A DNA stretch of 64,000 nucleotides from the NCBI GenBank assembly GCA_043757405.1, contig JAYVPI010000001.1:211437-275436 (forward strand), written 5' to 3'. Position numbers and translations under genes: made by a program. Below, piece after piece: positions 23,842 to 61,566 of this stretch (its first letter is position 1; each line of letters begins with the position of its first letter). This DNA comes from Alphaproteobacteria bacterium (GTDB lineage: Bacteria; Pseudomonadota; Alphaproteobacteria; Rickettsiales; 21-14-0-20-44-7). The notes beneath the pieces are model-generated. The model was given only the letters and a program-made list of their open reading frames with translations. It ran no database searches and had not been told where the DNA came from.

Positions 23842-23848
23842 GTTTATT

Positions 23849-24119: not shown

Positions 24120-24131
24120 AGAGTTAGATAA

Positions 24132-25952: not shown

Positions 25953-26007
25953 GCGTTAATATCTGTTAATTTACCTTGATTGCGCTTGCTGGAACTATAT
26001 AATAACT

Positions 26008-26730
26008 ATGAAACTTAATGGAATAATAAATACACCTACATCTGATATGCACAGAAGATTTTTTACTGAAGAGGATATATGCAAGTTAAGCGCTGACTTA
26101 GCTAAATATATACCTAGATTTTTATTTGAAGAAGCTTTTGGGGAGGATGATAGCAAACATATGATCACCAGCTTACCCTCAGGAGCCAGGATCATTATGC
26201 CTAAAAATCCCCGAACATTAGATCGACTATATGATGCACTATTAGAGTTTGGTCTTATCTATGGTATGGCTCGAAAGGAACATCATATTGAAATTGACGC
26301 TGCGGAAGCTAGGGAATGTTTGGACTATGCGCATAAGTTAGAAAAATACATTGGCACAAAACTAGAAGCCGCATTACATAATACAACTTACTACACGTGC
26401 TTTAGTCAAATGGTGGAATCGGGTTTTGATGTAGTTGAAGATAAAATTGATCCTATAATCCAATGGAGACCGCTCGAAACCGATATAACATTATTTTTTC
26501 CGCCAATGGATGATCAATTAATAGGTTATGCGTCAATACCTGCAATTGATAATTTTACACGTGCGACACGATCACTCAGAGATGACGTTTGTGTTAGAGA
26601 GCATATAATAGAAAAAACGGCAGTTATTATACGTATGGATTCGGAAAAGTTGCTTACTAGATTAGGTATTAATCCTAATGCAGTACAATTTATAAACGTT
26701 GCTAAGGGTATTGAAAGAAGCGCAGATTAG
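26008..26730 (+). CDS. Hypothetical protein (240 aa)
   Basis: ORF in an AT-rich spacer between uvrC and mutL. I recognise no family. Confidence 0.5.
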   Translation: MKLNGIINTPTSDMHRRFFTEEDICKLSADLAKYIPRFLFEEAFGEDDSKHMITSLPSGARIIMPKNPRTLDRLYDALLEFGLIYGMARKEHHIEIDAAEARECLDYAHKLEKYIGTKLEAALHNTTYYTCFSQMVESGFDVVEDKIDPIIQWRPLETDITLFFPPMDDQLIGYASIPAIDNFTRATRSLRDDVCVREHIIEKTAVIIRMDSEKLLTRLGINPNAVQFINVAKGIERSAD

Positions 26731-28490
26731 CCTTTTCGCCCAAACAGCTTCTCTACATCACTCAACTTTAATTCCACATATGTCGGCCGGCCGTGGTTGC
26801 ATTGGCCGGAGTGTGGCGTGGCTTCCATTTGGCGGAGCATTTCGTCCATTTCCTGGATGCTGAGTTTGCGGCCAGCGCGGATGGAATTGTGGCAGGCGGC
26901 GGTTTCCAATACATGCTCAAAAGCTTGCATCAGGCTCAAATCGGAGCCATGTTCGATGATGTCGTCGGCGATGTCTTTTAATAATTCGGAGGCGGAATGT
27001 TTGGTGAGTAAAGTAGGGATTTGCCGAACTTCGATTTCTCCCGCGCCAAATTTCTCAACTTCAAAGCCGAATTTGCTCAACACAAGTTTGAGGTTGAGGA
27101 TGATGTCTAATTGTTTTTCATTCAAGCGTATAATTTCGGGAACTAGCAAAGGCTGTTTTTGCAGACGGTTTTCGTCAATCTGGCTTTTGTAATTCTCATA
27201 AACCAGGCGCTCATGCGCTGCGTGTTGATCGACAATTACGATTGAATTTGCGGTTTCGGCTATAATATAAGTCGCATGCAATTGCGCCTTGGCGTGGCCG
27301 AGCGGATACCCTTCCCCAGCCCCTTCCTTGAGGGAAGAGGCTTCAATTATCTCCTCCTCCCTCAGGAAGGAGGTCGGGTGGAGGGTAAACGCCACGGCCT
27401 CTTCGCGCAGCGGCAGATAATTTGTTTGCGGCGCGTTGTAATAAGCGTTCTTATAAGCCGCTCCTGCATTATTGCGCGACATAGAGTGCAACGCGAAATC
27501 GGCAATCGTCGTCGAGGCTTTGTGGCCAGCAGAGCTGATGGCGCCGCGCAGGGCGGAAATTAATAAGCCGCTCATCATGCGGCCATCACGAAAACGGACT
27601 TCAGATTTGGCGGGGTGGACGTTGACATCAACTTCGGCGCTGGGAATTGTGATGAATAGCGCCAAAGCCGGAAAGCGGCCGCCGCCGAGGAAATCGGCAT
27701 AGGCGGCGCGGATCGCCCCTTGGAGGACTTTGTCTTTTACCGGACGGTTATTGACAAAGATATACTGGCTCTCGCTGGTGCGGCGGTTATAGGTTGGGAT
27801 GCCTGCGAAACCGGTGAGTTTTATGTCTCCGCGTATGGCGTCAATGGCGACGGAGTTGTCTCCGAAGTCATCACCGATAATATCAGATATTCTTTGCACT
27901 GGCGATGCGGGTAGGAAATGTAGTTTTTCTTTGCCGTCAACTTCAACTCTAAACGCAGTTTCAGGATTGGCCATAGCGATTTTGCGGATGATATCCAGGC
28001 ACTGCGATTTTTCGCTATCATCGGTTTTTAGAAATTTCAGGCGTGCGGGAGTGGCGAAGAATAAGTCACGCACATCAATTTTAGTGCCAGCGTGCGTTGG
28101 GGTTGGCTGTATCTCGCTAACATCGCCGCCGATAACTTCGATTTTCGCACCGCGGCTGCTGATTTTCAACTTTGCTACGGAGCCGATTGCGGGCAATGCC
28201 TCACCCCGGAAGCCGAAAAAGCGAATATTGAAAAGGTCATCGTCCAGTAATTTGGAAGTGGCGTGGCGTTGCACTGCCAGTTTCAATTCCTCGGCATTCA
28301 TGCCTATGCCATCGTCGGAAATGCTGATTAAGTTTTTTCCGCCAGCTTCGATTTTTATTTCGATATTTTTTGCACCGGCATCGAGGGAGTTTTCCACCAG
28401 CTCTTTAACTGCGGAACTTGGACGCTCAAGCACCTCACCGGCGGCGATGCGGTTGATTATATTTTGCGGGAGAAGGCGGATTATGGTCAT
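26727..28490 (-). CDS. mutL: DNA mismatch repair protein MutL
   Basis: Contains INRIAAGEVLERPSSAVKELVENSLDAGA. Length is 587 aa. Confidence 0.95.
   Translation of the reverse strand: MTIIRLLPQNIINRIAAGEVLERPSSAVKELVENSLDAGAKNIEIKIEAGGKNLISISDDGIGMNAEELKLAVQRHATSKLLDDDLFNIRFFGFRGEALPAIGSVAKLKISSRGAKIEVIGGDVSEIQPTPTHAGTKIDVRDLFFATPARLKFLKTDDSEKSQCLDIIRKIAMANPETAFRVEVDGKEKLHFLPASPVQRISDIIGDDFGDNSVAIDAIRGDIKLTGFAGIPTYNRRTSESQYIFVNNRPVKDKVLQGAIRAAYADFLGGGRFPALALFITIPSAEVDVNVHPAKSEVRFRDGRMMSGLLISALRGAISSAGHKASTTIADFALHSMSRNNAGAAYKNAYYNAPQTNYLPLREEAVAFTLHPTSFLREEEIIEASSLKEGAGEGYPLGHAKAQLHATYIIAETANSIVIVDQHAAHERLVYENYKSQIDENRLQKQPLLVPEIIRLNEKQLDIILNLKLVLSKFGFEVEKFGAGEIEVRQIPTLLTKHSASELLKDIADDIIEHGSDLSLMQAFEHVLETAACHNSIRAGRKLSIQEMDEMLRQMEATPHSGQCNHGRPTYVELKLSDVEKLFGRKG
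27301..27385. repeat. CCTCC/GGAGG double-hairpin element inserted in frame in the mutL linker
   Basis: The reverse complement aligns with 57667-57747 in thiC. It encodes ...PTSFLREEEIIEASSLKEGAGEGYP... Confidence 0.7.
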
Positions 28491-28545
28491 GAAGCCAGAT
28501 TAGCTTTCTCGCCTCAGTTGTGCAACTTAAATAGACTTTGGTCAT

Positions 28546-28594
28546 CAGTCTTCGGACTTCAATAATTATTTAAAAACTGACGTCTGATGTCTGG
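28546..28594. repeat. GTCTTCGGAC/TCAGAC-family element, short ORF-less copy
   Basis: The sequence is CAGTCTTCGGACTTCA...CTGACGTCTGATGTCTGG, between the mutL start and the rne stop. Confidence 0.4.
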
Positions 28595-28601
28595 CGACTA
28601 A

Positions 28602-31130
28602 CTACTCGATCATTTTCCGCCACCAGCCTTTGCGATTATCAGAAGGCTTCGCTGAGCCGCCTTCTTCACCGGCATGGGCGACTTCTTTGACCGGTTTTTC
28701 ACGGTAGCCTTGCGGGCTTTCCTCGCCGGTGCTTACCTGGGTTTGCCTGGCTGGGCGTTGCGGGCGTGCGCTTTTCTTTTTCTCCGGCGCAAAGCTCATG
28801 CGAACTGGTTTGCCTGGCTCGAAATGTGTGACGGCGGGGACATCTGCGATGACTTTACTGCTACCGCGTCTTGGTGATGCTGCCTCAACTTCGATTTTTT
28901 CACCCGGGAGTTCGTGCGCGTGGTCATGCTGCTGTTGCGGCTGGCGTTCGCCACGATCTCGGCTGCGATTGCGATTTCTGCTGCGGTTGCGGTTGCGGCG
29001 GTTGCCTCCGCGGCGTTCGCGGTTTTCGTTGAAGCCAACTTCTTCCACGTTTTGCGGACGGGTTTCGCCACCTTCGTTTTCCATGGTCTGGATTTCGTTT
29101 TCAATAAATTTATCATCAGAAACTTGTCCGCTGGACTTGCGCCCGCCGCGATCGCGGTCACGGCCTCGGTCACGCCCACCACGGCTGCGCTTGCCTTTTT
29201 CACCGCGCGATTGCGGCAAGCGGGAAGTATCCCGGTCATCGGATGAAACGGAGCGTGATTTACCGCCTGCGGAATCTTCCAATTGGATACGGAAGGCGGC
29301 TGGGCTCATTTCGGCGACGTCGAGGACTAGTTCAAAACTATATTTGGATTCCAGTTCCGCGATATGTTTCCGTTTATTGTTCAGGAAATATAGACCGAGG
29401 GAAGCCGCGGTTGTGACTATTACGCGGCCAATTTGTACTCCCTGCTCTTGCGCGACTGCCAATTCGTTTTCAATTGAACGGGCGAGTTGTATCATTGCGG
29501 AATCGTTGGAGCGGATGATGCCAGCACCTTTGCAGGTTGGGCATTCGACCATGTTGATTTCGGTGAGTGATGGGCGCAGGCGCTGGCGCGACATTTCCAT
29601 CAAACCAAATGGGGAAATTCTGCCAACTTGGATTTTGGCACGATCGGAGCGCAGCGCGTCTTTCAAATTGCGCTCGACATTGCGGCGATGGCGTGAATCC
29701 ATCATATCGATAAAGTCGATGACGATAAGTCCGGCCAAATCGCGCAGGCGGAGTTGCCTTGCAATTTCATGCGCGGCTTCGATATTAGTGCGCGTGGCAG
29801 TATCTTCGACATTACGCTCCCCAGTGGCGCGTCCGGAGTTGACGTCGATGGCGATCAAAGCTTCGGTAGTGTTGATGACGATATAACCGCCGTTTGGCAA
29901 AGTGACCATCGGATCATTCATCGAGGCAAGATGGCGTTCGATGTTATATTTGTTGAAGATCGGAACCGGCTCTTCGTATTGAACAATTTTTTTGACATGC
30001 GTGGGCATGATCAGCTTCATAAAATCGCGGGCAGTCTCGAAGGCTTTTTGGCCGGCGACTAATACTTCCTCGACATCGCTATTATAAAAATCGCGCAAGC
30101 CGCGTTTGATCATGTTGCCTTCTTCATGCACCAGTGCGGGTGCGGACGAAACAAGTGTATCTTCGCGGATTTTATTCCAGAGTTTGATGAGATAAGTATA
30201 ATCACGCGTAATATCTGCTTTAGTGCGGCCCATACCGTTGGTGCGGACGATCAGGCTCATTCCATCTTTTAACTCTAAACCTTCGATTGTTTCTTTGAGT
30301 TTCCGGCGTTCTTTGACGTCGTTGATTTTGCGCGATACGCCACCACCGCGATTTGTGTTTGGCATAAGCACGCAATAGCGTCCCGGCAATGAAATATAGC
30401 TGGTAACGGAAGCGCCTTTATTGCCGCGCTCTTCTTTGATTACTTGAATCAGGACAATTTGGTTTTTCTTGATTACTTCTTGGATTTTGTAACGGCGGAT
30501 ATTGGCGCGGCGTGGGCGCTCGTACACTTCGTCATTGCCTAAATCCTCGATACCTTCCTGGCTGCCGGATTGTAATTGCTGCTCTTCACCCTCGTGGTGA
30601 TGCTCGGAATTTTCCGCTTCTTCGGCGGAAGTTAGCGGAAGGATTTGCTCGTTTATTGAAAGTTCCTCTTCCTGCGGCAGAACTAAATCTTCCGGAACTA
30701 TATGCGCTTCGTCATCATGTTCAATTTCGCTGATTTCTTCGGATACTGCGACTTCTTCGATGCCACTATCGTTTCTTGCCTCGCGGCCACTGCGTGACTC
30801 ACGCTCGATTTCGGCTTCAACCTGGCGGTTTTCAGCTTCACGCTCTTCGGCTTGGGCGCGTAATAAATCTTGCTTATCAGCAACTGGAATCTGGTAATAA
30901 TCCGGGTGAATCTCTGAAAATGGCAAAAAGCCCTGGCGGCCGGAACCATATTCGACAAATGCGGCCTGAAGCGAAGGCTCAACCCTCGTTACTTTTGCCA
31001 GATATATATTGCCTTTATTTTGCTTCTTAAAACTGGATTCTATATCAAATTCGATTAAAGCATCATCATCCGCGATTGCCAGACGAGTTTCTTCTTCGTG
31101 GAGGCCATCCACCAGCATACGTAAAGTCAT
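28602..31130 (-). CDS. rne: Ribonuclease E (Rne/Rng family)
   Basis: The S1 domain (GNIYLAKVTRVEPSLQAAFVEYG) and catalytic core are present. The C-terminal half is Arg-rich, with an acidic insert. Confidence 0.9.
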   Translation of the reverse strand: MTLRMLVDGLHEEETRLAIADDDALIEFDIESSFKKQNKGNIYLAKVTRVEPSLQAAFVEYGSGRQGFLPFSEIHPDYYQIPVADKQDLLRAQAEEREAENRQVEAEIERESRSGREARNDSGIEEVAVSEEISEIEHDDEAHIVPEDLVLPQEEELSINEQILPLTSAEEAENSEHHHEGEEQQLQSGSQEGIEDLGNDEVYERPRRANIRRYKIQEVIKKNQIVLIQVIKEERGNKGASVTSYISLPGRYCVLMPNTNRGGGVSRKINDVKERRKLKETIEGLELKDGMSLIVRTNGMGRTKADITRDYTYLIKLWNKIREDTLVSSAPALVHEEGNMIKRGLRDFYNSDVEEVLVAGQKAFETARDFMKLIMPTHVKKIVQYEEPVPIFNKYNIERHLASMNDPMVTLPNGGYIVINTTEALIAIDVNSGRATGERNVEDTATRTNIEAAHEIARQLRLRDLAGLIVIDFIDMMDSRHRRNVERNLKDALRSDRAKIQVGRISPFGLMEMSRQRLRPSLTEINMVECPTCKGAGIIRSNDSAMIQLARSIENELAVAQEQGVQIGRVIVTTAASLGLYFLNNKRKHIAELESKYSFELVLDVAEMSPAAFRIQLEDSAGGKSRSVSSDDRDTSRLPQSRGEKGKRSRGGRDRGRDRDRGGRKSSGQVSDDKFIENEIQTMENEGGETRPQNVEEVGFNENRERRGGNRRNRNRSRNRNRSRDRGERQPQQQHDHAHELPGEKIEVEAASPRRGSSKVIADVPAVTHFEPGKPVRMSFAPEKKKSARPQRPARQTQVSTGEESPQGYREKPVKEVAHAGEEGGSAKPSDNRKGWWRKMIE

Positions 31131-31377
31131 GTTTATTCCTTAAATTGTAAAAAGGCGCAGCGGGCAAATCAATGCATATATATGTGTGAAGACCCGTCAT
31201 TTGCGACCTAAAGTTGAAATTTCCTATATTCTCCGGTTTACCGGCGGCTCTTATAATTGCAGGTTTGCCCCCCCAATTGCAAGAAGAGTTTTATATTTCT
31301 TCGTTCTGTTAACCGTTTCTTAGAAATTATGGGTCATTATAGAATAAATTTAATTAAAATTTAATTGGTAGGCCCTT

Positions 31378-31830
31378 ATGAAACAGATCCTTATTGAAAA
31401 CATCCTCTACATCGAACGCCTCCACCGCCGGTTTTTGGACGTTATCAAGGCCGAATTGGATCGCTTGCGGGTTGATGATATCAACAACGTGCAAACGCTT
31501 ATTTTATATAACATAAGCTCTGAGCGCATGACCATTTCCGAGTTGACCAATCGCGGTTATTATTTAGGCTCAAACGTATCATATAACATCAAAAAACTGG
31601 TCGAAAACGGCTATTTAATACAAGAAAAATCCCCCCACGATAAACGCGCCGTCCGCATCAAGCTTTCTGAAAAAGGCCTGGAACTGACTGGCAAAATCGA
31701 TGCTTTCCTGGAACGATCAGTAGTCGTTATGAAAGACATGGGCGTGAAGGAACAGGAAATGGGCGATACCAGCAAAGTATTACGCAAAGTTGAGCGCTTC
31801 TTGAGCGATTTGTTGGCTAATGTAGTGTAG
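31378..31830 (+). CDS. MarR-like winged-helix transcriptional regulator
   Basis: The 150-aa product has a wHTH-like centre (ISELTNRGYYLGSNVSYNIKKLVENGYL...DKRAVRIKLSEKG). Confidence 0.6.
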   Translation: MKQILIENILYIERLHRRFLDVIKAELDRLRVDDINNVQTLILYNISSERMTISELTNRGYYLGSNVSYNIKKLVENGYLIQEKSPHDKRAVRIKLSEKGLELTGKIDAFLERSVVVMKDMGVKEQEMGDTSKVLRKVERFLSDLLANVV

Positions 31831-31850
31831 TAATTTTTCTAAGAGGGTCC

Positions 31851-32603
31851 GTGTCCAGCAGAAAAGGATTTACACTTGTTGAACTGGCTATTGTATTAGT
31901 CATAGTCGGCTTACTAATTGGTGGCATACTTGCAGCACAAAGCATGTCAGGAACTGCAAAAGTTACGGCTCAGGTTAAGCAAATCCAACAGTTTGATATA
32001 GCAGTCACCAATTTTAAAACCAATTATGGCGGCCTTCCAGGAGATACAGCCAAAATCTCGCCTGGCACAGCTAATGGCGATGGATTAATAGACGTAACTA
32101 ATTGCTGCGGCGGCCAGGAGTGGATGACCAACGAAAACGGTTATTTTTGGACGCAGCTAACTACAACACAAATGTTCAACGACACCCATTCATATACAAG
32201 TGGCTGGTGTTCTACTGCTTCTTGGCCAAGCACATGCGCCCCGACTAGCCCTTTGAATCCTAAAGCCGGCACAGTTGCTTATGGTATAACATCACTGAAT
32301 AAAAATTATTACAATATAGTCTGCGGCAATTCATCCAACTACTTTGCCCAATGTCCGTCAATTAATCCGGTTGATGCGTTAGCCTTAGATAGCAAAATGG
32401 ACGATGGAGATCCGAGCGCCGGTACGGTCGTGGCTAGAAATGGCCCCGACTCGCAAACGACGACATTAGGAAACGGTTGGTGGAATGATAACTGCACCGC
32501 TGTATCAGGAAAATACAATGTTAGCGGCACAACAGGTTATATAACTGCTGCAGTTAAATGTAACATGCGGATCGAAATGCTGGCACAGACTGGGCAGCAA
32601 TAA
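31851..32603 (+). CDS. Prepilin-type N-terminal cleavage/methylation domain protein (pilin/pseudopilin-like)
   Basis: The GTG start follows AAGAGGG. The N-terminus is KGFTLVELAIVLVIVGLLIGG and the C-domain is rich in Cys and Trp. Confidence 0.65.
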   Translation: MSSRKGFTLVELAIVLVIVGLLIGGILAAQSMSGTAKVTAQVKQIQQFDIAVTNFKTNYGGLPGDTAKISPGTANGDGLIDVTNCCGGQEWMTNENGYFWTQLTTTQMFNDTHSYTSGWCSTASWPSTCAPTSPLNPKAGTVAYGITSLNKNYYNIVCGNSSNYFAQCPSINPVDALALDSKMDDGDPSAGTVVARNGPDSQTTTLGNGWWNDNCTAVSGKYNVSGTTGYITAAVKCNMRIEMLAQTGQQ

Positions 32604-32706
32604 GAAATGCATATATAAGAGGCGCTTAAAACGTCTAAATTTTACCCTCTTGCATTGCACAAAATTAGGCGTATTATGCGCGCGATTTAGTCACTTTTAA
32701 TGGCAA

Positions 32707-34683
32707 ATGATAGAATTTAAAAAATTGCGGGATCGACTTTTAGGCCCGCCGCGTGATCCTTTCAGCAAAGACACAAGACATAAGATAAGCCTTGCGATTT
32801 TCCTTGCCTGGGTCGGACTTGGCGCGGATGGTCTTTCGTCATCATGCTATGGCCCGCAGGAAGCATTTATCGCGCTGGGTGAGCATTCAAGCCTCGCCTT
32901 TTATCTGGCAGTCGCAACTGTAATTACCGTTTTCATCATTTCATTTGCCTATATGCAAGTGATCGAACTTTTCCCCAATGGCGGCGGCGGATATCAAGTG
33001 GCGACCAAATTACTTGGGCCATATGCGGGGCTACTTTCCGGCTCGGCATTAATTGTTGATTATGTCCTCACCATCTCAATTTCCATCGCCAGCGGTATCG
33101 ATGCATTGTTCAGCCTTTTTCCCGAAGTCCCCCATGTTTATAAAATTGTGCTATCGGTCGGGATAATTTTGGGCATGGTTTATCTGAACCTGCGCGGCAT
33201 TAAAGAATCGATCAAAATCCTTATGCCGATTTTCCTCGGCTTCGTGGTTACGCATGTATTCTTAATTTTATGGGGAATTTTCGCGCATCGCACGGCAGTG
33301 CCGGAGATGATTCCGAATGCGATCCACGAAACCACAACTCTCGGTGCGACGATGGGGTGGATATTTGTGGTTACATTATTGATGAAGGCGATTTCTCTCG
33401 GCGGCGGAACCTACACCGGTTTGGAAGCTGTATCTAATAATGTCGGTACAATTGAGGAGCCGCGGGTTCGTAATAGCAAGCTGACGATGCTATTAGTCGC
33501 CTGCTCATTGGCCTTTATGGCGGCGGGTATAATTACACTTTATTTAATTTGGAATGTAAAATACGTCCCCGGAGAAACGCTTAACGCAACCGTGTTCGGC
33601 GCCATCATGCAAAACTGGAATATCGGCGGTTTCGAACTCAAAACCATCCTCCTCCCGATAGTATTGTTCCTCGAAACCGGACTTTTATTCGTTGCCGCCA
33701 ATACCGGATTTATCACCGGCCCAATCGTATTGGCGAAAATGGCGACGGACAAATGGATGCCGGATTCCTTCTCTGCACTTTCCAGCCGCCTGGTTACCAA
33801 AAACGGCGTTATGCTGATGGGAGCCGCGGCAATCGGGGTGATTTTGGCGACTAATGGCCGCGTTTCGACCCTCGTCGTATTATATTCCATCAACGTATTC
33901 ATCACCTTCTCCCTCTCCTTCCTCGGACTGATGAAACACTGGCTTGGACGCCACCGCAAGAAAATCAGCATCGGTAAATGGTTCGTGAAGTTCACCTTGG
34001 CCCTACTCGGTTTTATCATGGCCACCGGCATCCTCATCATCACTATAGTCGAAAAATTCGGCACTGGCGGCTGGCTGACAATTTTGATTACTAGTTTCGT
34101 GGTTTATATCGGGTTGTCCATCCGCAAAAGTTATCGTCAACTTTCCAACCGCCTCAATAAATCGGAATGCAAGGTTGAGATCGGTGAGAAAAAAGATCCG
34201 CGCCATACTCCGCATATCCACCACGAAAAACCGACAGCAGTATTTATTCTTGATTCAAATGTCGGCAGCACGACTTACGCCGCGGAATGGGTGCACAAAA
34301 CATTCCCCGGAATTTATAAAAACTTCGTTTTCGTCGGTGTCGGCGAAGTAGATTCGGATAATTTTACCGAAGATGAAGTTTGGGAAAAGCAAAAGCGCGA
34401 TATCAAGCAGAAGCTGCGCTACTTCGTGAACCATTGGCACAATCTTGATGTTGCCTCGACTTCATATATTTCCTACGGAACGGATATCGTAGAAAAAGTC
34501 AGCGAACTCGCCGGTAAAATCGCCCATGATTTCCCGAATTCAGTTTTCTTCGCCACAAAAATGGTGATCAAGGATGAGAACTTCTTTACGCAGATGCTGT
34601 ACAACGAAACCAGCTATATCATCCAACGCCGCCTGCATAATACCGGACATACGATGATTATTATTCCGATGAATTTGCAGTAA
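32707..34683 (+). CDS. APC-superfamily permease with C-terminal soluble domain
   Basis: About 12 predicted TM segments over the first ~470 aa, then a ~180-aa hydrophilic tail. Confidence 0.6.
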   Translation: MIEFKKLRDRLLGPPRDPFSKDTRHKISLAIFLAWVGLGADGLSSSCYGPQEAFIALGEHSSLAFYLAVATVITVFIISFAYMQVIELFPNGGGGYQVATKLLGPYAGLLSGSALIVDYVLTISISIASGIDALFSLFPEVPHVYKIVLSVGIILGMVYLNLRGIKESIKILMPIFLGFVVTHVFLILWGIFAHRTAVPEMIPNAIHETTTLGATMGWIFVVTLLMKAISLGGGTYTGLEAVSNNVGTIEEPRVRNSKLTMLLVACSLAFMAAGIITLYLIWNVKYVPGETLNATVFGAIMQNWNIGGFELKTILLPIVLFLETGLLFVAANTGFITGPIVLAKMATDKWMPDSFSALSSRLVTKNGVMLMGAAAIGVILATNGRVSTLVVLYSINVFITFSLSFLGLMKHWLGRHRKKISIGKWFVKFTLALLGFIMATGILIITIVEKFGTGGWLTILITSFVVYIGLSIRKSYRQLSNRLNKSECKVEIGEKKDPRHTPHIHHEKPTAVFILDSNVGSTTYAAEWVHKTFPGIYKNFVFVGVGEVDSDNFTEDEVWEKQKRDIKQKLRYFVNHWHNLDVASTSYISYGTDIVEKVSELAGKIAHDFPNSVFFATKMVIKDENFFTQMLYNETSYIIQRRLHNTGHTMIIIPMNLQ

Positions 34684-34699
34684 TATCCCTATGCTACAT

Positions 34700-34763
34700 G
34701 TCATCCTGCGACTTGATCGCAGGATCTCTTAGAGAAGACCCTATGGTCAAGCCATAGGATGAC
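34700..34763. repeat. GTCATCC...GGATGAC palindromic element, intergenic
   Basis: GTCATCCTGCGACTTGATCGCAGGATC...CCTATGGTCAAGCCATAGGATGAC. The left module is identical to the one in dnaE (42660). Confidence 0.85.
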
Positions 34764-34769
34764 GTATAT

Positions 34770-40110: not shown

Positions 40111-40125
40111 GGCCACATGATATAC

Positions 40126-40173
40126 GTCATCTTGAGCGCAAGCGAAAGATCTTTCGCTCGCGCTCAAGATGAC
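40126..40173. repeat. 48-bp palindromic element at the era/dnaE junction
   Basis: GTCATCTTGAGCGCAAGCGAAAGA|TCTTTCGCTCGCGCTCAAGATGAC has one arm mismatch. It contains the dnaE stop codon (40164-40166). Confidence 0.85.
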
Positions 40174-43100
40174 GATGGAAGGCAAATGCCCTCGATGAAC
40201 ATTATCTGCTCTTTTAAATTATCATTCACCGCATAATATCCCGGCAGTTCCAGCACCACTTCGCTAACGCCCGTTTGCGCTTTTAATATTACGCGGTTTT
40301 TGAACAACATGCCGCTTTCATATATATTCGCAGCTAATAAATTTCTCAGTTTCGCCACCGCTTCCAGGTTATCTGCAACAAAATTCAAGTCCTGGACTTT
40401 TATAAAACGCAGGAAATTTGCCTTAATTGCCGCTTGCAATTCTTCTATCCTCTCTGCCAACAAACGCACACCACCTTCATCTTTCTTCGCCTCGGCCGTA
40501 ATCAATATCGGCGTATTACTCGCCAACATTTCCGCCGCGCGGGTGATTAGGTCATCTTCGTAGAGAACAATTTCAAACACCCCCATCCCATCCGAAACTT
40601 TCGCAAACGCAAACCGCCCACGCTTGCCGGAACGAATATTCAAGGTTGCCAGCACACCAGCTAAACGAACTTTGGTCGAAGCGCTCTTCAGGCGTTCTTC
40701 GATTTGTATTGATGGCAACACGCCCATTTCATCGAGGATATGCTGATAATCATTCAATGGATGGTCTGATAAATAAAACCCAAATGCCTCATATTCCGCC
40801 TTCAGACGCTCATTGGAATCCCAATCGCTGGCCTGTACTAACGAGGGTTTTGGCGCTTCGCCAATCGTTCCTTCGCCAAATAAGCTGATTTGCGAAGAGT
40901 CAATTTCTTCCTGGCAAATATTGTTATACCGGCTGAGCATCTCCGCCGATTCCAGGATCTGCCGGCGGTTGCAAGCCATGCCGTCAAACGCCCCTGCCTT
41001 CGCCAAACCTTCCAAATGCTTCTTATTAATCACCTTAACATCGCAGCGTTTGCAAAAATCAAACACATCGGCGAACTTCCCGTTCTCCTTCCTCTGCGCC
41101 GCCATTGCTTTCGCCGCTTCGATACCAACGCCTTTTAATGCACCTAGCGCATAACGGATTGAGCCGTTTTCAGGTTGGAAATAAGCCTCTGAGGAGTTGA
41201 TATCAGGAGACAAAACTTTGATACCGCGTTTGCTGGCTTCGTGTTTATAAAAGCTGAGTTTGTCGGTGTCGGCAATATCGAGGTTCATACAGGCGGTCAA
41301 AAACTCCACCGGGTAATGGCAGCTCAAATATGCTGTCTGGTAGGCAATCACCGAATAAGCCACCGCGTGGGATTTGTTGAAACCGTAACCGGCGAATTTG
41401 GCGATCAAATCAAAAATATCCGCCGCCAGTTTTTTATTGATCCCCTTCTCCGCCGCACCTTCGGCAAACATCAGGCGTTGTTCATCCATCTCCGCCTTAA
41501 TCTTCTTGCCCATCGCCCGCCGCAGCAAATCCGCTTTGCCAAGCGAATATCCGGCCAATATTTGCGCGGATTGCATAACCTGTTCTTGATAAACCAAAAT
41601 TCCATATGTCTCATTCAACAAATCCGACAATGAAATATGCGGATATTGCACCTCTTCCTTGCCGTGTTTCCGCGCATTATAACTCGGAATATTTTCCATC
41701 GGGCCGGGGCGGCAAAGCGAAGTTAGTGCCACGATATCCTCAAATTTATCAGGGCGCATTTTGCGAATTGCGTCTTTCACCAAAGTTGTATCCAACTGGA
41801 ATACACCCGCCGTTTCACCTTTGGAAAGCATATGGAAAATCTTCTCATCATCCAGCGGTAGGTTGTGGATATCAACTTTATTCCCCCCAGCCTCAACAAA
41901 CTGCCGCGCCTTATCCACCAGCGTCAATGTACGCAAACCGAGGAAATCGAACTTCACCAACCCGGCCGTTTCCGCATCTTTCATCGAATATTGCGAAACC
42001 GGCATTTCTGAGCGCGGGTCTTTATATAACGGCACCAACTCCACCAATGGCCGGTCAGCAATCAATATTCCCGCCGCATGTGTAGAAGCATGGCGATTCA
42101 ATCCTTCGAGTTTCAGCGCCACATTCAACAATCGTCCGATATTCTCATCATCACGTTGCAACCGCCGCAGTTCAGGATCCATATCTATCGCTTTGGAAAG
42201 CGTCACCGGGTCAATTGGATTGAACGGAATCATTTTAGAAATCCTATCAACTTCCATGTAGGGAATTTGCATCACCCGCCCGACATCGCGCAGCACCGCC
42301 CGCGCTTGTAGTTTTCCGAAAGTGATAATCTGGCAGACACGGTCGTGGCCATATTTATTACGCACATAATCGATCACCTCATCGCGCCGCTCCTGGCAGA
42401 AATCGATATCAAAATCCGGCATTGATACACGTTCAGGATTCAAGAACCGTTCAAACAGCAAGCCAAACCGCAACGGGTCAACATCGGTGATTTGTAGCGC
42501 CCAGGCTACTAAGGAACCTGCACCCGAACCCCGTCCCGGCCCCACCGGAATTCCCTGGCCCTTCGCCCATTTGATGAAGTCGGATACGATTAAGAAATAG
42601 CCCGGAAATTTCATCTTGATAATGACATCAAGCTCGAATTCCAGCCTAGTCCAATATTCGTCATCCTGCGACTTGATCGCAGGATCTTGTGAGTGCATCT
42701 CAGGAGGTCCTGCGGTCAAGCCGCAGGATGACGTTTTAGTATTTAAGCGCTCCTGCAAACCCTCACGCGCCTGCACCCGTAACTCATCTTCCTGCGTCCT
42801 GCCAGCCTCAGTTGGATAATCCGGCAACATCGGCTGACGTCCTTCTGCTTTAACCGAGCAACGTTTCGCAAGCTGCACCGTATTGGCAATCGCCTCCGGA
42901 ATATCCGCAAAAATCGCTATCATTTCCTCAGCTGATTTAAAATAGAATTGGTCGTTATATTTCTTGCGGTTTTCATCAACCAAATATTTGCCCTCGGCGA
43001 TACATATCAGCGCGTCATGGGCCTCGGACATATCCTGGGTTGAATAGAAGCAATTATTAGTGGCGATCAGTGGGAGATTATATTTATAGGCTATATCTAT

Positions 43101-44396: not shown

Positions 44397-44476
44397 CCGT
44401 CACCCCGCACTTGTTGCGGGGTCTATTCACAAGTTCATGCCCTGTAATGGATGCCGCAACAAGTGCGGGGTGACGG
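44397..44476. repeat. GTCACCCCG...CGGGGTGAC palindromic element between lolC/E and lolD
   Basis: Perfect 23-bp inverted arms CCGTCACCCCGCACTTGTTGCGG / CCGCAACAAGTGCGGGGTGACGG flank 34 bp. Confidence 0.9.
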
Positions 44477-45736: not shown

Positions 45737-46949
45737 TTATTACCTTATTTAAAGCCGCCTCAACCGAAACTTCCTGCTTCTCACTAGATTTGCGATTCTT
45801 CAACTCAACCATTCCATTGGCCGCGCTTCTTGGCCCCACAGCAATTTGCCACGGTAGCCCGATCAAATCCATCGTTGCAAATTTCGCACCCGCTGAACCA
45901 TCGCGGTCATCGTATAAGCAGCTTGCGACTTTGCCATAGATTTCACTGCAGATTTTATCGCAGGCAGCATCACCAGGTTTGATGTTGATTAGCCCGAGTT
46001 TATATGGCGCGACCGGTTCCGGCCAGATGATGCCATTTTCGTCGTGGCTGGCTTCGATAATCGCCCCCACCAGTCGCGAAACGCCGATGCCGTAACTGCC
46101 CATTTGCGGGATAATTTCCTTACCGTCCGGCCCTTGGACTTTGACTTTCATGGCACGCGAATATTTATCGCCGAAATAGAATATGTGGCCAACTTCAATC
46201 CCCCGCGCTTCCTTGAAACCTTGTGGCGCGGTTTTGGGATCGTGCATTTCATCGGCCATGGCATATGAAAAATCATCGGTGTAATAAAGCGCCGACTCTC
46301 CGGTCTGCGCGACGATATGGAATTCGTGGCTCAAATCTCCGCCGATTGGCCCTGTATTGGCGCGAACAGGCACGGCTTTCAATCCCATGCGGGAGAAGGC
46401 TTTTAAATATGCGCCGTGATATTTCCAATATGTTTCCTGCGCCGCTTTTTCGTCGATATCAAAGCTATAAGCATCCTTCATCAAAAATTCGCGGCCGCGC
46501 ATGACGCCGAACCGTGGGCGGACTTCGTCGCGGAATTTCCATTGGATGTTATAAAGCATTTTTGGCAGGTCTTTATATGACTTGCAGGATTGGCGGAAAA
46601 TATCGGTGACAACTTCCTCCGCTGTCGGGCCAAAGAGCAGATCGCGGTCAGAGCGGTCTTTTATACGCAGCATTTCCTTGCCATAAGCTTCATATCGCCC
46701 AGATTCCTGCCATAATTCAGCCGGTTGCATAGTCGGCATCAATAGTTCCAGCGAGCCGATCGCGTCCATTTCCTCCCGAACGATTTGTTCGATATTTTTG
46801 AGGACTTTCAAGCCCAAAGGCAGCCAATTATAGATCCCCGCCCCCACTTGGCGCACCATTCCGGCACGCAGCATCAGGCGATGTGAGGCAATTTGCGCCT
46901 CAGCCGGATTTTCTTTGATTATCGGAAGGAGATATTGGCTTAGTTTCAT
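45726..46949 (-). CDS. proS: Proline--tRNA ligase (short form without editing domain)
   Basis: N-terminus [34 protein letters not shown]. Class II motifs are present. Confidence 0.9.
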
Positions 46950-46952
46950 AAG

Positions 46953-47024
46953 TCGTTCGTTGTTAATCGTTGATCGTTCATCGCTTGTAATTCGATAAAC
47001 GATTAACGATGAACGATCAACGAA
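46953..47024. repeat. TCGTTGATCG-type palindromic element (copy 2)
   Basis: TCGTTGATCGTTCATCG...CGATGAACGATCAACGA with a TTGTAA centre, between the proS and rpmG starts. Confidence 0.65.
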
Positions 47025-47089
47025 AAAGCTTGACTTTGCTGTGGGCGATGGCTAAAAACCCTGACAAATCAAAGAATCGGATAAGAAAA

Positions 47090-47263: not shown

Positions 47264-47655
47264 GTCTTTCAGACATCGGACTTCAGTGAAAAAGGGCCAC
47301 AGGGAATTAAAAGTTTGGCAAAAATCTGTGGAGTTGGTTGATAATGTATACAACCTCATAGAGAAATTTCCTAAACATGAAATTTATTCTTTATCTACCC
47401 AATTAAAAAGATCCGCGGTCTCCGTTCCCTCAAACATAGCAGAGGGCTCAGCTAGAAAATCTGACAAAGAATTCATACGTTTTTTGAATATTGCATACGG
47501 CTCATTGGTGGAAGCGGATACGCAAATTTACATAGCCGAAAAAAGAAAATATATCTCCTCTGAAGAAGCAATTTCTATTATCAATGATCTTAACGAAGTA
47601 GGCAGAATGATAAATGGCCTAAGAAACTACTTACTGAAGTCCGATGTCTGAAGAC
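47264..47655. mobile_element. IVS-like hairpin cassette: 22/23-nt inverted repeats enclosing a four-helix-bundle ORF
   Basis: The left arm is GTCTTTCAGACATCGGACTTCAG (47264-47286). The right arm is CTGAAGTCCGATGTCTGAAGAC (47634-47655). They are complementary apart from one extra T. Confidence 0.5.
47286..47651 (+). CDS. Four-helix-bundle protein ('23S rRNA intervening sequence protein' / Avd-like family)
   Basis: Family hallmarks LKVWQKS...FPKHEIYSLSTQLKRSAVSVPSNIAEGSAR...FLNIAYGSLVE are present. The GTG start lies at the last base of the left stem and the stop lies inside the right stem. Confidence 0.8.
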   Translation: MKKGHRELKVWQKSVELVDNVYNLIEKFPKHEIYSLSTQLKRSAVSVPSNIAEGSARKSDKEFIRFLNIAYGSLVEADTQIYIAEKRKYISSEEAISIINDLNEVGRMINGLRNYLLKSDV

Positions 47656-49654: not shown

Positions 49655-50377
49655 CTATTTTTTATCGCAAACCGCCTCAAAAAATATCGCCCGCGTGGTA
49701 TTGGCGAGGTTTTTCTTCTGATACTTAGTTTCAATATGGTCAATAGGTTGTGTTTGCCAATCTGCCCTGGAACCTGCCAACCAACGAAATTTATCGTGTT
49801 CCAGCAATTCTCTGGCGATCCATTTAGCATAATCTTCGTGATCCGTGGCAATTCTGAGCCTGGCATCCCGCTTCATAATTCGTGCAAGCAAGTCTAAAGT
49901 TTGCTTCGATATTATCCGGCGTTTATTCTGCCGTTTCTTTGGCCACGGATCGGGGAACAGTATAAATACACGATCAATAACTCCCTCCCACACGTCATCC
50001 TGCGGCTCGACCGCAGGATCTCCTATGGTCAAGCCATATGGTGACGTAATTAATTGACGAAAATCTCCGGCATAGACTCGGATATTCTTAAGCTCATTCT
50101 CTTCAATCCCACGCAATAATTTTACAGTTCCGTTTACAAACGGCTCGCAGCCAATAAAGCCAATTTTGGGATTTGCCAGCGCCTGATGCAATAAATGACC
50201 ACCATCACCAAAGCCGATCTCCAGCCAGATTTCTTTGAAATCAAACTTAGGAAAGCCGTCAACTTTCACTTTGGGCAAAACTTCCGCCAACAGCTTTTTG
50301 GAATTATCACGCAGCTTGCGCGACTTGGTACGACCAAAGCTTTGCAGGTATTTAGGCGACTGCTTTGCGTAATTCAT
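49655..50377 (-). CDS. trmB: tRNA (guanine46-N7)-methyltransferase TrmB
   Basis: Contains [14 protein letters not shown]. The start is set at ATG 50377 and overlaps the metK 3' end by 26 nt. The track's 50443 start is less likely. Confidence 0.85.
49994..50045. repeat. GTCATCC...GGTGAC element inserted in frame in trmB
   Basis: GTCATCCTGCGGCTCGACCGCAGGATCTCCTATGGTCAAGCCATATGGTGAC encodes [17 protein letters not shown]. Confidence 0.8.
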
Positions 50378-51548
50378 CCGCCAAATCCGTTTTCTCCCAC
50401 GAGAAGCCGCCGTCTTTTTCCGGTTTGCGGCCAAAGTGGCCATAAGCGCTGGTGCGGCGGTAGATTGGTTTGTTAAGCTCTAATCTGGTGCGGATTCCAC
50501 GTGGAGATAAATCCACAATCTCAAGAATTTTCTGCGCCAGTTTTTGCTCGTCTACTTTTCCAGAACCATGTGTATTCACATAAAGCGCCAATGGTTTTGA
50601 AACGCCGATTGCATAGGCAACCTGCATTGTACAGCGATCGGCAAGACCTGCGGCAACCACGTTTTTAGCAACATAACGCATTGCATATGCCGCTGAACGA
50701 TCAACTTTAGTTGGGTCTTTGCCGCTGAATGCGCCGCCGCCATGTGGGGCAGACCCGCCGTAAGTATCGACGATAATTTTACGGCCGGTCAAACCAGAAT
50801 CACCTTCCGGGCCACCGATTACGAAATTGCCGGTTGGGTTGACATAAAATTCTTCTTCACTCGGCATCCAGCCTTTTGGTAAAATACGTTCGACAACCGG
50901 ACGGATGATATCGCGTACATCTTTGGTTTTTAAACCCGCATCATGCTGGTGCGAAACTACAACTGAAGTTGCTTTGACGGCACGGCCATTGCCTTCGTCG
51001 TTGTTTTGATAAAGCAATGTAACCTGTGATTTCGCGTCCGGGCCGAGGCCTTTGATTTTGCCGGATTTGCGCAGGTCAGTCAGTTCTTTCAAAATTTTGT
51101 GCGAATAATAAATTGGAGCCGGCATTAAATCTTCAGTTTCATTACAAGCATAGCCGAACATGATACCTTGATCGCCAGCGCCTTCATCTTTAGTGTCATT
51201 AGAATTTACACCCATTGCGATATCTGGGGATTGGCTGATCATATAGTTATGGATATTCACTTTTTGCCAGTGGAAGCGCTCTTGTTCATAACCCACATCT
51301 TTCACCACACCGCGTGCGATTGCGCAGATTTCGTCCTTGGTCAGGGCTTGTTTGGCCGTTGCTTCGCCGCCGATGATGATATTATCAGGCGTAACCATGC
51401 ACTCCGCGGCAACGCGGGCATATGGGTCTTTGCTTAAATAAGCATCAACAATCGCGTCAGAAATTTGATCGCAAAGCTTGTCCGGATGGCCCTCCGCCAC
51501 TGATTCGCTGGTAAATAAAAATTCGCCGGGATGATTTTTCATGTTCAT
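50352..51548 (-). CDS. metK: S-adenosylmethionine synthase
   Basis: Contains [11 protein letters not shown] and GGGAFSGKD. Length is 398 aa. Confidence 0.97.
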
Positions 51549-51575
51549 TTGGATACCTTGAATATCTGTTATATC

Positions 51576-51659
51576 GTCACCCCGGACTCGTTCCGGGGTC
51601 TGGCATTAGACACAATCTCTTGCCTCAACTTCCGGATCGCGGAACCAGTCCGCGATGAC
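51576..51659. repeat. GTCACCCCGG...CGCGATGAC two-hairpin element in the metK leader
   Basis: The hairpins are CCCCGGACTCGTTCCGGGG and ATCGCGGAACCAGTCCGCGAT. The architecture is that of the superfamily. Confidence 0.7.
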
Positions 51660-51693
51660 GATTATTAATGATGAAGTGGGTTTAACAGAGCTC

Positions 51694-52194: not shown

Positions 52195-53760
52195 TTAAAC
52201 TTTTCTTCTAAAAATTAATAAAAACTCCACACTGATTATGATTAATCCAAATATTATCCAATCACCGTATAATGAATATATAGTTACCGAATTATTTAAT
52301 TCAAGATCGGCGGATAAAAATCCATGCTGATTATAAGCCAATGATTTTACAATCCGCCCATTCTTATCAATAATCGCCGAAACTCCTGTATTAGCCGCCC
52401 GCAACATTGGCACCCCTTGCTCAATTGAACGCATTTGCGACATCGCCAGATGTTGATACGGCCCCGTCGAATTTCCAAACCACCCATCATTAGTAACATT
52501 AACCAGCAAATCCGGCTTGACTGCCGAATGGGAAAATTCCGGAAATGTGACTTCATAACAAATCAACGGCAAAAACCCCGGCCCGTTTTTATATTTCATC
52601 ACCTCACGCTTGCCCCCTTGCGAAAAATCCAGCGCTCCAGGCGTAATTTTTTCCAGCGGCAAATAATTCCGGAACGGCACAAACTCCCCAAACGGCACAA
52701 GGTGAATTTTGTCATAAGACTGATAAATCCCATCTTTGCTGATAGCATAAAGCGTGTTCCAAACCTGGTAATTACTTTTGCTTTCCCCGCTAGAGCGCAA
52801 CCCGCCAGTAACCAACACCCCATTATCCGGCGCCACACGCCTCAACAAATCCGTCACTGGCTGCTGCCGGTTCAAATAATAAGGCGCTCCCGATTCCGGC
52901 CACAAAACTATATCCGCGTTTTTATAATCCAGCGTCTGCATGAAATCTATATTCTCAATAAACTGCTTCTTCGCCGCCAACGGCTCCCACTTCAACGATT
53001 GCTCAACATTGGGTTGGAAGATTATGACTTTGGCAGTTTTATCTAAATCACCCTCACCTTTGCCAAAACATAACAGGCCATACAGAATTATAATCCCTAC
53101 AAGAGCAACAACCCCAACAAGTGATTTCTTATTTTTATAATAAAGCGGCAATAGCGAAATAATTATCACTACATAGCTCAACAAATAAACTCCGCCCGCT
53201 GAAGCAAGCTGTGAAAAAATAGTTGAAACTAGTGCCGTATATCCAATCAAATTCCATGGAAACCCCGTGAACAACCATGTGCGGATTAATTCAAAAACCA
53301 CCCATAATATAGAGAAAAGGATAATATCATTCCAATTCCCGCATTTGTCATCCTCGGGCTTGACCCGAGGGTCCAGCGATGAGTATGCCGCATGGCTGGA
53401 TCCCAGCCTTCGCTGGGATGACCTAAATGCGAGAGCAAACAACCCAATATAAATCGCCAGACCAAATGGAATCCCGCATACCGCAAACGGAATCAGCCAC
53501 GCAAATTTTTCTGCATCAACAAGTAGTGAGTTAGCAATCCAATATAAGCCAAACACAAAATACCCAAAGCCGAATGCCCAGCCGATTTTGAATGCCTGTA
53601 TCTTATTTTCCGCCGCAGCAAGAATTTTAAAAAATATTGGGAATGAGATAAATAAAACCGGAAAGATATAAAACGGCGCCAATGCCAAATCCGCCAATCC
53701 GCCAGCGGCAATTAGCGTTAAATACTTCAGCTTTCCTTGCAAAAAAAATTTTATCCCCAT
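52195..53760 (-). CDS. lnt: Apolipoprotein N-acyltransferase
   Basis: An N-terminal polytopic region and a CN-hydrolase domain with the LICYEVTFPE catalytic Cys context are present. Confidence 0.9.
   Translation of the reverse strand: MGIKFFLQGKLKYLTLIAAGGLADLALAPFYIFPVLFISFPIFFKILAAAENKIQAFKIGWAFGFGYFVFGLYWIANSLLVDAEKFAWLIPFAVCGIPFGLAIYIGLFALAFRSSQRRLGSSHAAYSSLDPRVKPEDDKCGNWNDIILFSILWVVFELIRTWLFTGFPWNLIGYTALVSTIFSQLASAGGVYLLSYVVIIISLLPLYYKNKKSLVGVVALVGIIILYGLLCFGKGEGDLDKTAKVIIFQPNVEQSLKWEPLAAKKQFIENIDFMQTLDYKNADIVLWPESGAPYYLNRQQPVTDLLRRVAPDNGVLVTGGLRSSGESKSNYQVWNTLYAISKDGIYQSYDKIHLVPFGEFVPFRNYLPLEKITPGALDFSQGGKREVMKYKNGPGFLPLICYEVTFPEFSHSAVKPDLLVNVTNDGWFGNSTGPYQHLAMSQMRSIEQGVPMLRAANTGVSAIIDKNGRIVKSLAYNQHGFLSADLELNNSVTIYSLYGDWIIFGLIIISVEFLLIFRRKV
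53347..53422. repeat. GTCATCC...GGGATGAC element inserted in frame in lnt
   Basis: GTCATCCTCGGGCTTGACCCGAGG...GATCCCAGCCTTCGCTGGGATGAC encodes GSSHAAYSSLDPRVKPEDD. Confidence 0.8.
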
Positions 53761-53763
53761 AAC

Positions 53764-53834
53764 GTCATCCTGCGGCTTGACCGCAGGAACTCCTCATACA
53801 CGCACCAGACCCTGCAATCAAGTAGCAGGGTGAC
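53764..53834. repeat. GTCATCC...GGGTGAC element at the lnt start / bioF end
   Basis: GTCATCCTGCGGCTTGACCGCAGG...CCCTGCAATCAAGTAGCAGGGTGAC. It contains the bioF stop (53818-53820) and lies 3 nt upstream of the lnt ATG. Confidence 0.8.
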
Positions 53835-54951
53835 ACATATTTAGTGTTTTAAGCCAATCCGCCAATAAATCAATTTCACTTTTCGTATGCGCCGCCGTCA
53901 CCGAAATGCGGAGCCGCGCCGTCCCCTTAGGCACCGTTGGCGGCCGCATCGCCGAGACTAGTATTTTATTATCCTTAAGCAACTTCTCCGCCGCTAGCGC
54001 CTTTTCCTCGCTGCCCAAAATAATAGGAACGATACTTGAAGTTCCGTCATTACGAGCGAAGCGCGGCAATGACGATTTAAGATATTCCGTATTCTTCAAT
54101 ACTTTCAAATATAGCTCATCCCGCCCAGCAATCTCCAGCGCCTTTATCGCCGCACCAACCGCGAATGGCGGCAGCCCAGTTGAATAAATCAATGATCGCG
54201 CCTTAGTCTCCAAATACCGAATCAAAGCCCGAGAACCACAAACATACCCCCCATAACTCCCCAGCGCCTTTGACATTGTCCCGATATAAATGTGAGCTTT
54301 AAGTTTTGATTTTTGATAAATGGAGTGTGCGCCGTCAACTATTAGTGTGCAGTTGTTTTTATCGGCGATTTCCTTCAGCTCATCAACCGGAGCAAAATCC
54401 CCATCCATTGAAAAGATCTCTTCGGTGATGATGAGCCGCCTGCGCTTATCGTCATTCTGAGCGCAAGCGAAGGATCCTTCGCTTGCGCTCAGAATGACGT
54501 CTTTCTCCAAACACTTCTTCAAGTCAGCAACATCATTATGCTTAAACCGCACCAGCTTTGCGCCGGAGAGCTTTATTGCGTCGATTATAGAAGCGTGGAC
54601 TAATTTATCGGCATAAACCACTTCCGGCTCCAGCGCTGTGATAACGCCAAGATTTGCCAGATATCCGCTGCCAAATACCGTGGCGGCCTCATAACCTTTA
54701 TAAGCCGCGATTTTTTCAGCAAATTCCCCAAATAATGGATGATTTCCGCCCGCAATCCTGCTTGCCCCCGCTCCTGCGCCATATTTTTCCGCAGCTTCTA
54801 TTCCGGCAATAATCACTTCCGGATGGCGGCTTAAACCTAAATAATCATTTGATGTAAAATTGATAAATCCTTCCCCCCACTCACCCTTGGGCGTTCGCAG
54901 GAGATTTTTATCCTTCAAATCATTTAGTTTTTGCTGTAATAGACTATCCAT
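53818..54951 (-). CDS. bioF: 8-amino-7-oxononanoate synthase
   Basis: SNDYLGL and the PLP-Lys context [12 protein letters not shown] are present. The start is set at ATG 54951 (MDSLLQQKL...); the track's 55011 start is TTG. Confidence 0.85.
54451..54498. repeat. Perfect 48-bp palindrome inserted in frame in bioF
   Basis: GTCATTCTGAGCGCAAGCGAAGGA|TCCTTCGCTTGCGCTCAGAATGAC has 24+24 arms with no mismatch. It encodes [16 protein letters not shown]. Confidence 0.9.
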
Positions 54952-55934: not shown

Positions 55935-59082
<3,148 letters not shown>

Positions 59083-61442: not shown

Positions 61443-61536
61443 GTCACCCCGTCCCCAGCCTTCGCTGGGGCAAGCCTTTGTGACGGGGTCAAGCGGTTCT
61501 TGTAAACGCCAGACCCCGCAACAAGTGCGGGGTGAC
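61443..61536. repeat. Mosaic GTCACCCC...GGGGTGAC element
   Basis: The right arm CCGCAACAAGTGCGGGGTGACGG (61516-61538) is identical to 44454-44476. The internal CCCAGCCTTCGCTGGG is identical to the module in lnt (53402-53417). Confidence 0.8.
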
Positions 61537-61566
61537 GGATAATATTTGTTATTTTAAATGTATCCA

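Follow-up and report, generated by a model that had tools for sequence, protein, structure and literature searches.

The segment that lengthens trmB in the 64-kb stretch of DNA analysed here (the window) is very probably a decayed head-to-head (HH) dimer of CGTC-tagged REPs, inserted in-frame in an ancestor, derived as a non-autonomous element from an Ssn cassette, and lodged in a tolerant surface loop of the protein. This extends the theme of selfish palindromes inside proteins, best known from Rickettsia, to an apparently uncultured alphaproteobacterial lineage. In-frame selfish hairpins in proteins are already known, and the trmB copy is a further example; new here are the lineage that hosts it, its stem variant, its site in TrmB and the local in-frame density. 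The sole part that may go beyond the known picture is turnover of the hairpins at a fixed intragenic site.

The host gene, trmB, encodes tRNA (guanine46-N7) methyltransferase and lies on the minus strand (49655..50377); the assignment comes from PF02390, TIGR00091, and an AF2 model searched with Foldseek. In a Pfam search the longest ORF (262 aa, 49655-50443) matched PF02390 (Methyltransf_4) with an E of 3e-36, the product matched solved TrmB structures at the sequence level, and the invariant motif residues E53, G55, G57, and D143-P-W-P-K147 were all present. The database protein (240 aa) begins at an internal ATG at 50377. Read from its longest ORF, trmB would share 92 nt with the end of metK (50352-50443); the internal start, which reduces the overlap to 26 nt, is favoured by homologues as well as by the database protein. 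The TIGR00091 score was 105.8 bits, slightly below the cutoff of 112.65, a caution for annotation, as such inserts can drop genuine genes just below curated family cutoffs. We compared the gene with its counterpart in a sister lineage (described below). Outside the insert, pN was 0.13–0.15 and pS was 0.80–0.83, while within the insert the values were 0.41 and 0.51. Thus, constraint acts on the gene but does not extend to the inserted peptide. Judged by these rates, trmB is still functional and under purifying selection, and from that selection and the intact frame we assume that the insert is translated.

The element itself, which reads CGTCATCCTGCGGCTCGACCGCAGGATCTCCTATGGTCAAGCCATATGGTGACG, is a spacer-less HH dimer of two CGTC-tagged REP modules that occupies 54 bp, or 18 codons, at 49993..50046, adds a net 16 residues to the protein, and has its coding product directly upstream of FPDPWPKKR. 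An earlier, sequence-only reading had described a 52-bp palindrome at 49994-50045. Its sequence was as described, and the inverted repeat GTCAT...GTGAC extends outward to CGTC...GACG at 49993-50046. The intact module (49993..50022, plus strand), supported by a match to the Ssn-related motif discussed below and by its ssDNA fold, opens with the tag CGTC at 49993-49996, continues with a 9-bp stem (49997-50005 and 50011-50019, arms ATCCTGCGG and CCGCAGGAT) around the loop CTCGA (50006-50010), and ends in the tail CTC; folded as ssDNA, it reaches −10.7 kcal/mol with the tag unpaired. The opposing module (CGTCACCATATGGCTTGACCATAGGAGATC, 50017..50046, minus strand), an AT stem variant recognised by HMM, module comparison, and ssDNA fold, carries the complementary tag GACG at 50043-50046, and its tail overlaps that of the intact module. 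The sequence-only reading had called this right terminus degenerate, and it is: 6 of the 9 stem pairs remain, and the ssDNA fold is worth −3.7 kcal/mol. Its closest relative is the right module of an intergenic copy at 34699-34764, from which it differs at 3 of 26 positions. As RNA, the whole element folds at −33.4 kcal/mol (z −6.3 against shuffled sequence). A search of Rfam gave no family matching the element at E≤10, and one tRNA only across the window.

Comparison with TrmB proteins elsewhere identified the segment as an insertion. Among the best 120 TrmB homologues, 117 could be scored for the spacing between EIGFG and DPWPK, and it was exactly 74 residues in 114 of them. The three exceptions were TrmB of the window organism, where the CGTC-tagged dimer brings the spacing to 90 residues; TrmB of the sister organism (P0002), with 103 residues and a member of this repeat family at identical codon boundaries; and TrmB of a relative (P0004, from contig L127), with 90 residues and a different palindromic repeat. 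In a syntenic relative (L004), trmB does not have the segment. The sequence-only reading had claimed an in-frame insertion and had proposed an alignment of orthologues and a structural mapping as checks; the claim held, the segment being missing from TrmB of unrelated taxa. At insertions in general, comparison with L004, L125, and L126 revealed no consistently visible target-site duplication. The insertion sites are variable linkers, too diverged from these three contigs to fix exact boundaries, and the palindrome may simply reach A-CGTC…GACG-T.

We mapped the site on an AlphaFold model of TrmB (mean pLDDT 89.2, pTM 0.88), which matched E. coli and B. subtilis TrmB in Foldseek with TM scores of 0.78–0.83, the best match being E. 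coli TrmB 3dxz at 0.83. The model has a helix at residues 106–111 and a strand at 134–140; the element-encoded residues 111–129 are coil, with pLDDT 60–65 and no secondary structure. The insert models as a low-confidence coil joining helix alpha-D to strand beta-5, with the remaining TrmB fold predicted to be intact. In Rossmann-fold topology the loop before beta-5 lies away from the catalytic side, which would put the insert next to the N-terminus of beta-5, on the side facing away from the catalytic FPDPW loop. The trmB gene of L127 contains two in-frame copies of another palindromic element (6100-6180 and 6365-6435), built of tandem 8-mers (CGGAACTT)n opposing (AGTTCGGG)n, and one of them falls in the same alpha-D/beta-5 loop. 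An NTS-like TGTCATTCCCGCG dimer lies just downstream of that gene, at 6812-6895. The same TrmB loop has thus been struck by two unrelated palindromes, a clean natural experiment on insertion-tolerant protein loops.

The trmB element belongs to a family that recurs across the window. The 19-mer CCTGCGGCTCGACCGCAGG is exact at 49999-50017 and, in bioA, at 57004-57022, and with up to 3 mismatches it has 7 matches against 0.01 expected from shuffles. A module HMM recovered 10 modules forming 5 inverted pairs at E≤3e-7, plus one remnant in lnt. The general layout is CGTC + ATCCTGCGG + CTYGA + CCGCAGGAT + a short tail, with modules paired head-to-head and tags outside, and all copies of the trmB-type repeat fold far better than shuffled sequence. 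In addition to trmB, the family comprises an intact dimer in-frame in bioA (56998..57063, +24 aa); a dimer in-frame in dnaE (42659..42733, +15 aa relative to L004), which is missing from the sister dnaE on L125; a single module with a CG stem variant on the plus strand, in-frame in lnt (53346..53376, +19 aa, …SSLDPRVKPEDD…); an intergenic dimer in the gap between the ORF at 32707-34683 and ftsJ/rlmE (34699..34764); and a dimer with a decayed right module in the lnt-bioF gap (53763..53835).

Related palindromes accompany this family. A second CGTC-tagged family consists of ~50-nt palindromes in which CGTCATYCTGAGCGCAAGCGAAGGA is fused directly to its own reverse complement; it has an intergenic copy in the lipB-yaaA gap (23072-23120), a copy that overlaps the dnaE stop and supplies the final residues (…LPSSS; 40125-40174), and a copy in-frame in bioF (54450-54499, +20 aa relative to L004). 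A 30-nt CGTCATT…AATGACG element also lies in-frame in bioF (54046-54075, +10 aa relative to L004), so that bioF has two separate repeat-derived inserts. A third subfamily, with the stem CCCCGCA/TGCGGGG (CGTCACCCCGCACTTGTTGCGGGGTCT), has three copies, all intergenic (44398-44475, 51575-51660, and 61509-61537); the trmB-asd gap of the sister organism contains a unit like it (L001 1162-1190). With all subfamilies included, the 64-kb window contains ~14 CGTC-tagged elements, and at least seven copies are genic and in-frame (two in dnaE, two in bioF, and one each in trmB, lnt, and bioA). The in-frame density is unusually high, with seven copies in six housekeeping genes over ~17 kb. The syntenic relative L004 had no such repeats across the compared 20.6 kb. 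All ~14 elements lie beyond 20 kb (20000-62000), and the first 20 kb contain none.

The in-frame dimers all read SSxGLTxG…DPxVKPxDD. We considered this shared frame as a sign of selection on the peptide and rejected it, because each strand has one stop-free frame only; with tag-to-tag lengths all divisible by 3 (54, 66, 75, and 93 bp), the shared frame is a matter of geometry.

The repeats fit the sequence definition of a known class. CGTC-tagged REPs predominate in Alphaproteobacteria, mostly as HH dimers (Di Nocera, De Gregorio, and Rocco 2013, BMC Genomics 14:522, PMC3733652). They are defined by a CGTC (or TGTC/CCTC) tag, a stem of 8–9 bp with complementary A/T at positions 1–2, a loop of 4–5 nt, and a short unpaired tail with the consensus CCA, the CGTC-3 and CGTC-4 families having a 9-bp stem and a 5-nt loop (PMC3733652). 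The same study identifies RPE-4 and RPE-6 of R. conorii as CGTC-4 and CGTC-1, the superfamily also takes in Neisseria dRS3, and several species have intragenic copies that encode 20–30 residues, with genes for replication and repair, dnaE among them, standing out as sites; the repeats were judged to be without a dedicated transposase, and many REPs were argued to act at the RNA level (PMC3733652). The trmB element has the same tag, 9-bp AT-starting stem, 5-nt loop, short tail, and dimers with outward tags, and the class resembles the window copies in its mostly alphaproteobacterial hosts and in having dnaE among its intragenic sites. The 'VKP' peptide signature of the window copies also occurs in the list of intragenic CGTC REPs (PMC3733652), from which the TrmB site of the window is absent. 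There are further differences. The window copies have a 3-nt tail, CTC or CTT, rather than CCA, whereas the same module in other genomes ends in TCCA, and the stem variant CCTGCGG/CCGCAGG of the window was found in 0 of 160 hairpins in other genomes. An R. conorii REP listed under 'tRNA-G-N7-methyltransferase' (RC1314, aa 109–117 of 524) appears to lie outside the TrmB-like region, which corresponds to positions 311–511 of the matching 524-residue PrmC/TrmB family model.

Rickettsia palindromic elements (RPE), reportedly described by Ogata et al. in 2000, are said to lie in-frame in housekeeping genes at fold-compatible positions. Classic RPE-1 is 100–150 bp long and unrelated in sequence to the trmB element. 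The likeness is that the trmB element too is in-frame in a protein gene at a fold-compatible position; the difference is that its host is not a Rickettsia, with a DnaE only ~50% identical to those of named Rickettsiales. The proposed kinship between the trmB element and RPE is drawn from the equation of RPE-4 and RPE-6 with CGTC-4 and CGTC-1 (PMC3733652). In back-translation, the R. conorii peptides VIPWLDHGI and DTVVKPRYD (2013 supplement) would give a 9-bp stem and the loop CTTGA, the layout found here.

In order to follow the hairpin beyond the window, we searched one-genome-per-species contigs with a degenerate module pattern, which gave more than 120 loci, mostly in Alphaproteobacteria and including Rhizobium, Agrobacterium, Shinella, Brevundimonas, Devosia, and Hoeflea. 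The free stem dinucleotides were complementary in 158 of 160 module matches, in seven combinations, and the free R/Y stem pair was G-C in 144, A-T in 11, G-T in 4, and A-C in 1. This complementarity indicates that the hairpin itself is maintained, beyond mere sequence.

A link to an enzyme comes from work in 2025, in which the units were renamed Ssn-related motifs (SRM) because single-domain GIY-YIG nucleases (Ssn, cd10448) bind them in ssDNA form and cut alongside them (Nat Commun 2025, PMC11893778). There, the Neisseria NTS/dRS3 repeat is the Ssn-bound member, ssn genes are typically flanked by the motif in the order hairpin-ssn-hairpin, and the demonstrated role of Ssn is to restrict transforming ssDNA, that is, cleavage and not transposition or mobilisation (PMC11893778). 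Using the published SRM search motif, HGTCWYN(0-2)YYVSBRHN(0-5)WNVSBRGN(0-2)RNCYNB (PMC11893778), we obtained 12 matches in the window against 0.12 expected from Markov-1 simulations, and one of them is the trmB module at 49993-50023. The NTS stem (ATTCCCGCG…) is unlike that of the trmB module, and in-frame copies, a feature of the window repeats, do not appear to be treated in the SRM study (PMC11893778).

The same association appeared in our own matches. In four loci (Francisella, Brevundimonas aurantiaca, Hoeflea, and one alphaproteobacterial MAG), an ORF of ~95 aa with a GIY-YIG domain (PF01541) has the module on both sides, tags outward. In the B. aurantiaca locus (L024 7437-7822), the ssn-like ORF lies between its two outward-tagged hairpins, and its frame continues into the downstream hairpin as …DPRVKPEDD…, the same peptide as in the in-frame copies. 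No ssn-like GIY-YIG gene was found in the 64-kb window by regex, by Pfam on 23 ORFs, or by tblastn with three ssn-like proteins (best E 0.04). The HH dimer looks like a hairpin-ssn-hairpin cassette minus its gene, an analogy that, taken with the 2025 Ssn work, suggests a candidate enzyme for a repeat class said in 2013 to have none.

We would picture the following. The trmB dimer would be a non-autonomous derivative of a hairpin-ssn-hairpin cassette, as a MITE is to an IS. It would have been set into trmB by hairpin-directed cleavage of ssDNA and joining, through an Ssn-type nuclease whose gene would lie outside the window, and is read in the sole stop-free frame pairing, which gives SSxGLTxG…DPxVKPxDD. 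The insert presumably survives because the alpha-D/beta-5 loop tolerates added residues. Insertion most likely took place in the common ancestor of the window organism and its sister, and the spacer and part of one stem would have been lost since.

The timing of the insertion was explored in the sister organism through three contigs: L001 and L125, both from one ENA sample, and L128, from a JGI sample with identical TrmB. The sister is 90–91% identical to the window organism in DnaE and Asd, with 53–68% of four-fold degenerate sites different. At identical codon boundaries, its trmB carries a 93-bp dimer of this family, 13 codons longer than the window copy and a near-perfect palindrome (−61.8 kcal/mol). 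Both genes have a derived L-I…W-x-G junction that lies outside the repeat consensus. The same codon boundaries and the shared W-x-G junction support one ancestral insertion. None of the window copies at 34699, 40125, 42659, and 44398 was found in the 13.4 kb of orthologous sister sequence (L125), and the trmB element is the only window copy with a same-codon counterpart in the sister. The suggestion of the sequence-only reading that this is an older copy is thus borne out by its being shared at the same codon position and by the loss of the spacer and of part of a stem. A metagenome scan for the REP/W-x-G junction returned a second contig of the sister organism only, and no further lineage.

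The intact module has a less simple history. The sequence-only reading had noted that it is identical to the left module of the bioA copy, and the two indeed differ at 0 of 26 positions, with the 19-mer exact at both sites; it differs at 1 of 26 from the right module of the dnaE copy, which was gained after the split from the sister, and at 6 of 26 from its own positional orthologue in L001. Four of those 6 differences make up a paired change from CCTCGGG/CCCGAGG to CCTGCGG/CCGCAGG. The L001 trmB module, in turn, is 1/26 from the window lnt copy. With four-fold sites 53–68% different, a neutral 26-mer would be expected to differ at ~14–18 positions. This pattern, from sequence comparison, is not what a simple old-fossil history would predict, as the intact module looks too fresh, and it suggests that hairpins at one fixed site within a gene are turned over or homogenised. 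With two lineages compared, the slow divergence of the module could stem from the hairpin being constrained, from conversion by other copies, or from a further insertion at this site. We tentatively raise one version, to which we give distinctly less than an even chance, in which the trmB copy serves as a lasting landing pad, its hairpins replaced from time to time by the currently active variant through gene conversion or homing. It would explain the identity with bioA and the single difference from the later dnaE module, the mainly paired compensatory changes relative to the orthologue, and palindromes kept despite near-saturated neutral sites. If true, Ssn-type hairpin elements would be in concerted evolution even inside essential coding sequences.

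These same data give the strongest alternative to a single ancestral insertion its weight. The window and sister copies may not be orthologous but the products of two or more independent insertions, or of a replacement, at the same trmB site, whether because the site is a hotspot for hairpin insertion or because homing or gene conversion from other REPs brought a new copy to an old one. The closeness of the intact module to bioA and dnaE modules rather than to its orthologue, the absence of that dnaE copy from L125, the closeness of the L001 module to lnt, and the shortfall of module differences against the neutral expectation all speak for it. So do the near-perfect palindrome in the sister, the GC stem variant, which its absence from the 160 hairpins elsewhere marks as lineage-specific, and the different palindrome that L127 carries in the same loop. 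However, the codon boundaries are exactly common to both lineages, and the derived junction that they share is most simply explained by one ancestral event; selection on the hairpin or correction from arm to arm could also slow decay, and the comparison is limited to two lineages. We regard independent insertion as a serious contender whose chances fall only a little short of even.

A role for the insert in its host gene is improbable. Such co-option would mean that the mRNA hairpin regulates the expression or stability of trmB, or that TrmB gains a new interaction through the added loop. The strong fold on the mRNA strand, the retention of the insert across a deep split, and the RNA-level action argued for many REPs (PMC3733652) are in its favour. 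In contrast, the pN and pS within the insert indicate no protein-level constraint, the sister copy differs in sequence and has 13 more codons, one stem is decaying, and similar inserts in five other nearby genes point to a genome-wide selfish process.

Mobilisation as a REPIN, by a RAYT (an IS200/IS605-type tyrosine transposase), is more improbable still. The REPIN-RAYT system (Bertels and Rainey 2011) has the same architecture, a pair of short inverted palindromes able to form either separate hairpins or a single long one, and it too forms a within-genome population with compensatory stem variants. However, REPINs have a GTAG tag, a tyrosine transposase as partner, and an almost always extragenic location, and none of these applies to the window elements: the tag is CGTC, and CGTC repeats are not associated with RAYT genes. 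Neither a RAYT/Y1 nor any other transposase was detected by Pfam among the 23 window ORFs tested, and the genes that the module borders in other genomes are of the GIY-YIG type.

It is hardly credible that the segment is a loop native to TrmB in this lineage, a lesion in a pseudogene, or an artefact of assembly, as nothing favours any of these beyond the segment being in-frame, while the window has at least 10 occurrences of the DNA module, intergenic DNA included, the ORF is intact under purifying selection, and the element is identical (100% identity) in two assemblies from independent read sets (L002 and L003), which shows that it is not an assembly artefact.

Several other features of the window were recorded. 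A composite intergenic palindrome of ~95 nt (20983-21077) has the ends TGTCATCCTCG…CGAGGATGACGG and an inner inverted repeat GGGGATCCAGG…CCTGGATCCCC. An unrelated inverted-repeat family of TCGTTGATCGTT-like units, not CGTC-tagged, has two intergenic copies, at 22391-22460 and 46944-47025. A 121-aa ORF at 47286-47651, alone among housekeeping genes, belongs to the 23S rRNA intervening-sequence protein family (PF05635, E 2e-41; bAvd-like). Cumulative GC skew peaks near 28–30 kb (region about 18000-34000), and no E. coli-type dif site was found near this maximum. Genes to the left of the peak run mostly rightward and those to its right mostly leftward, and the skew peak together with these gene directions would fit a replication terminus.
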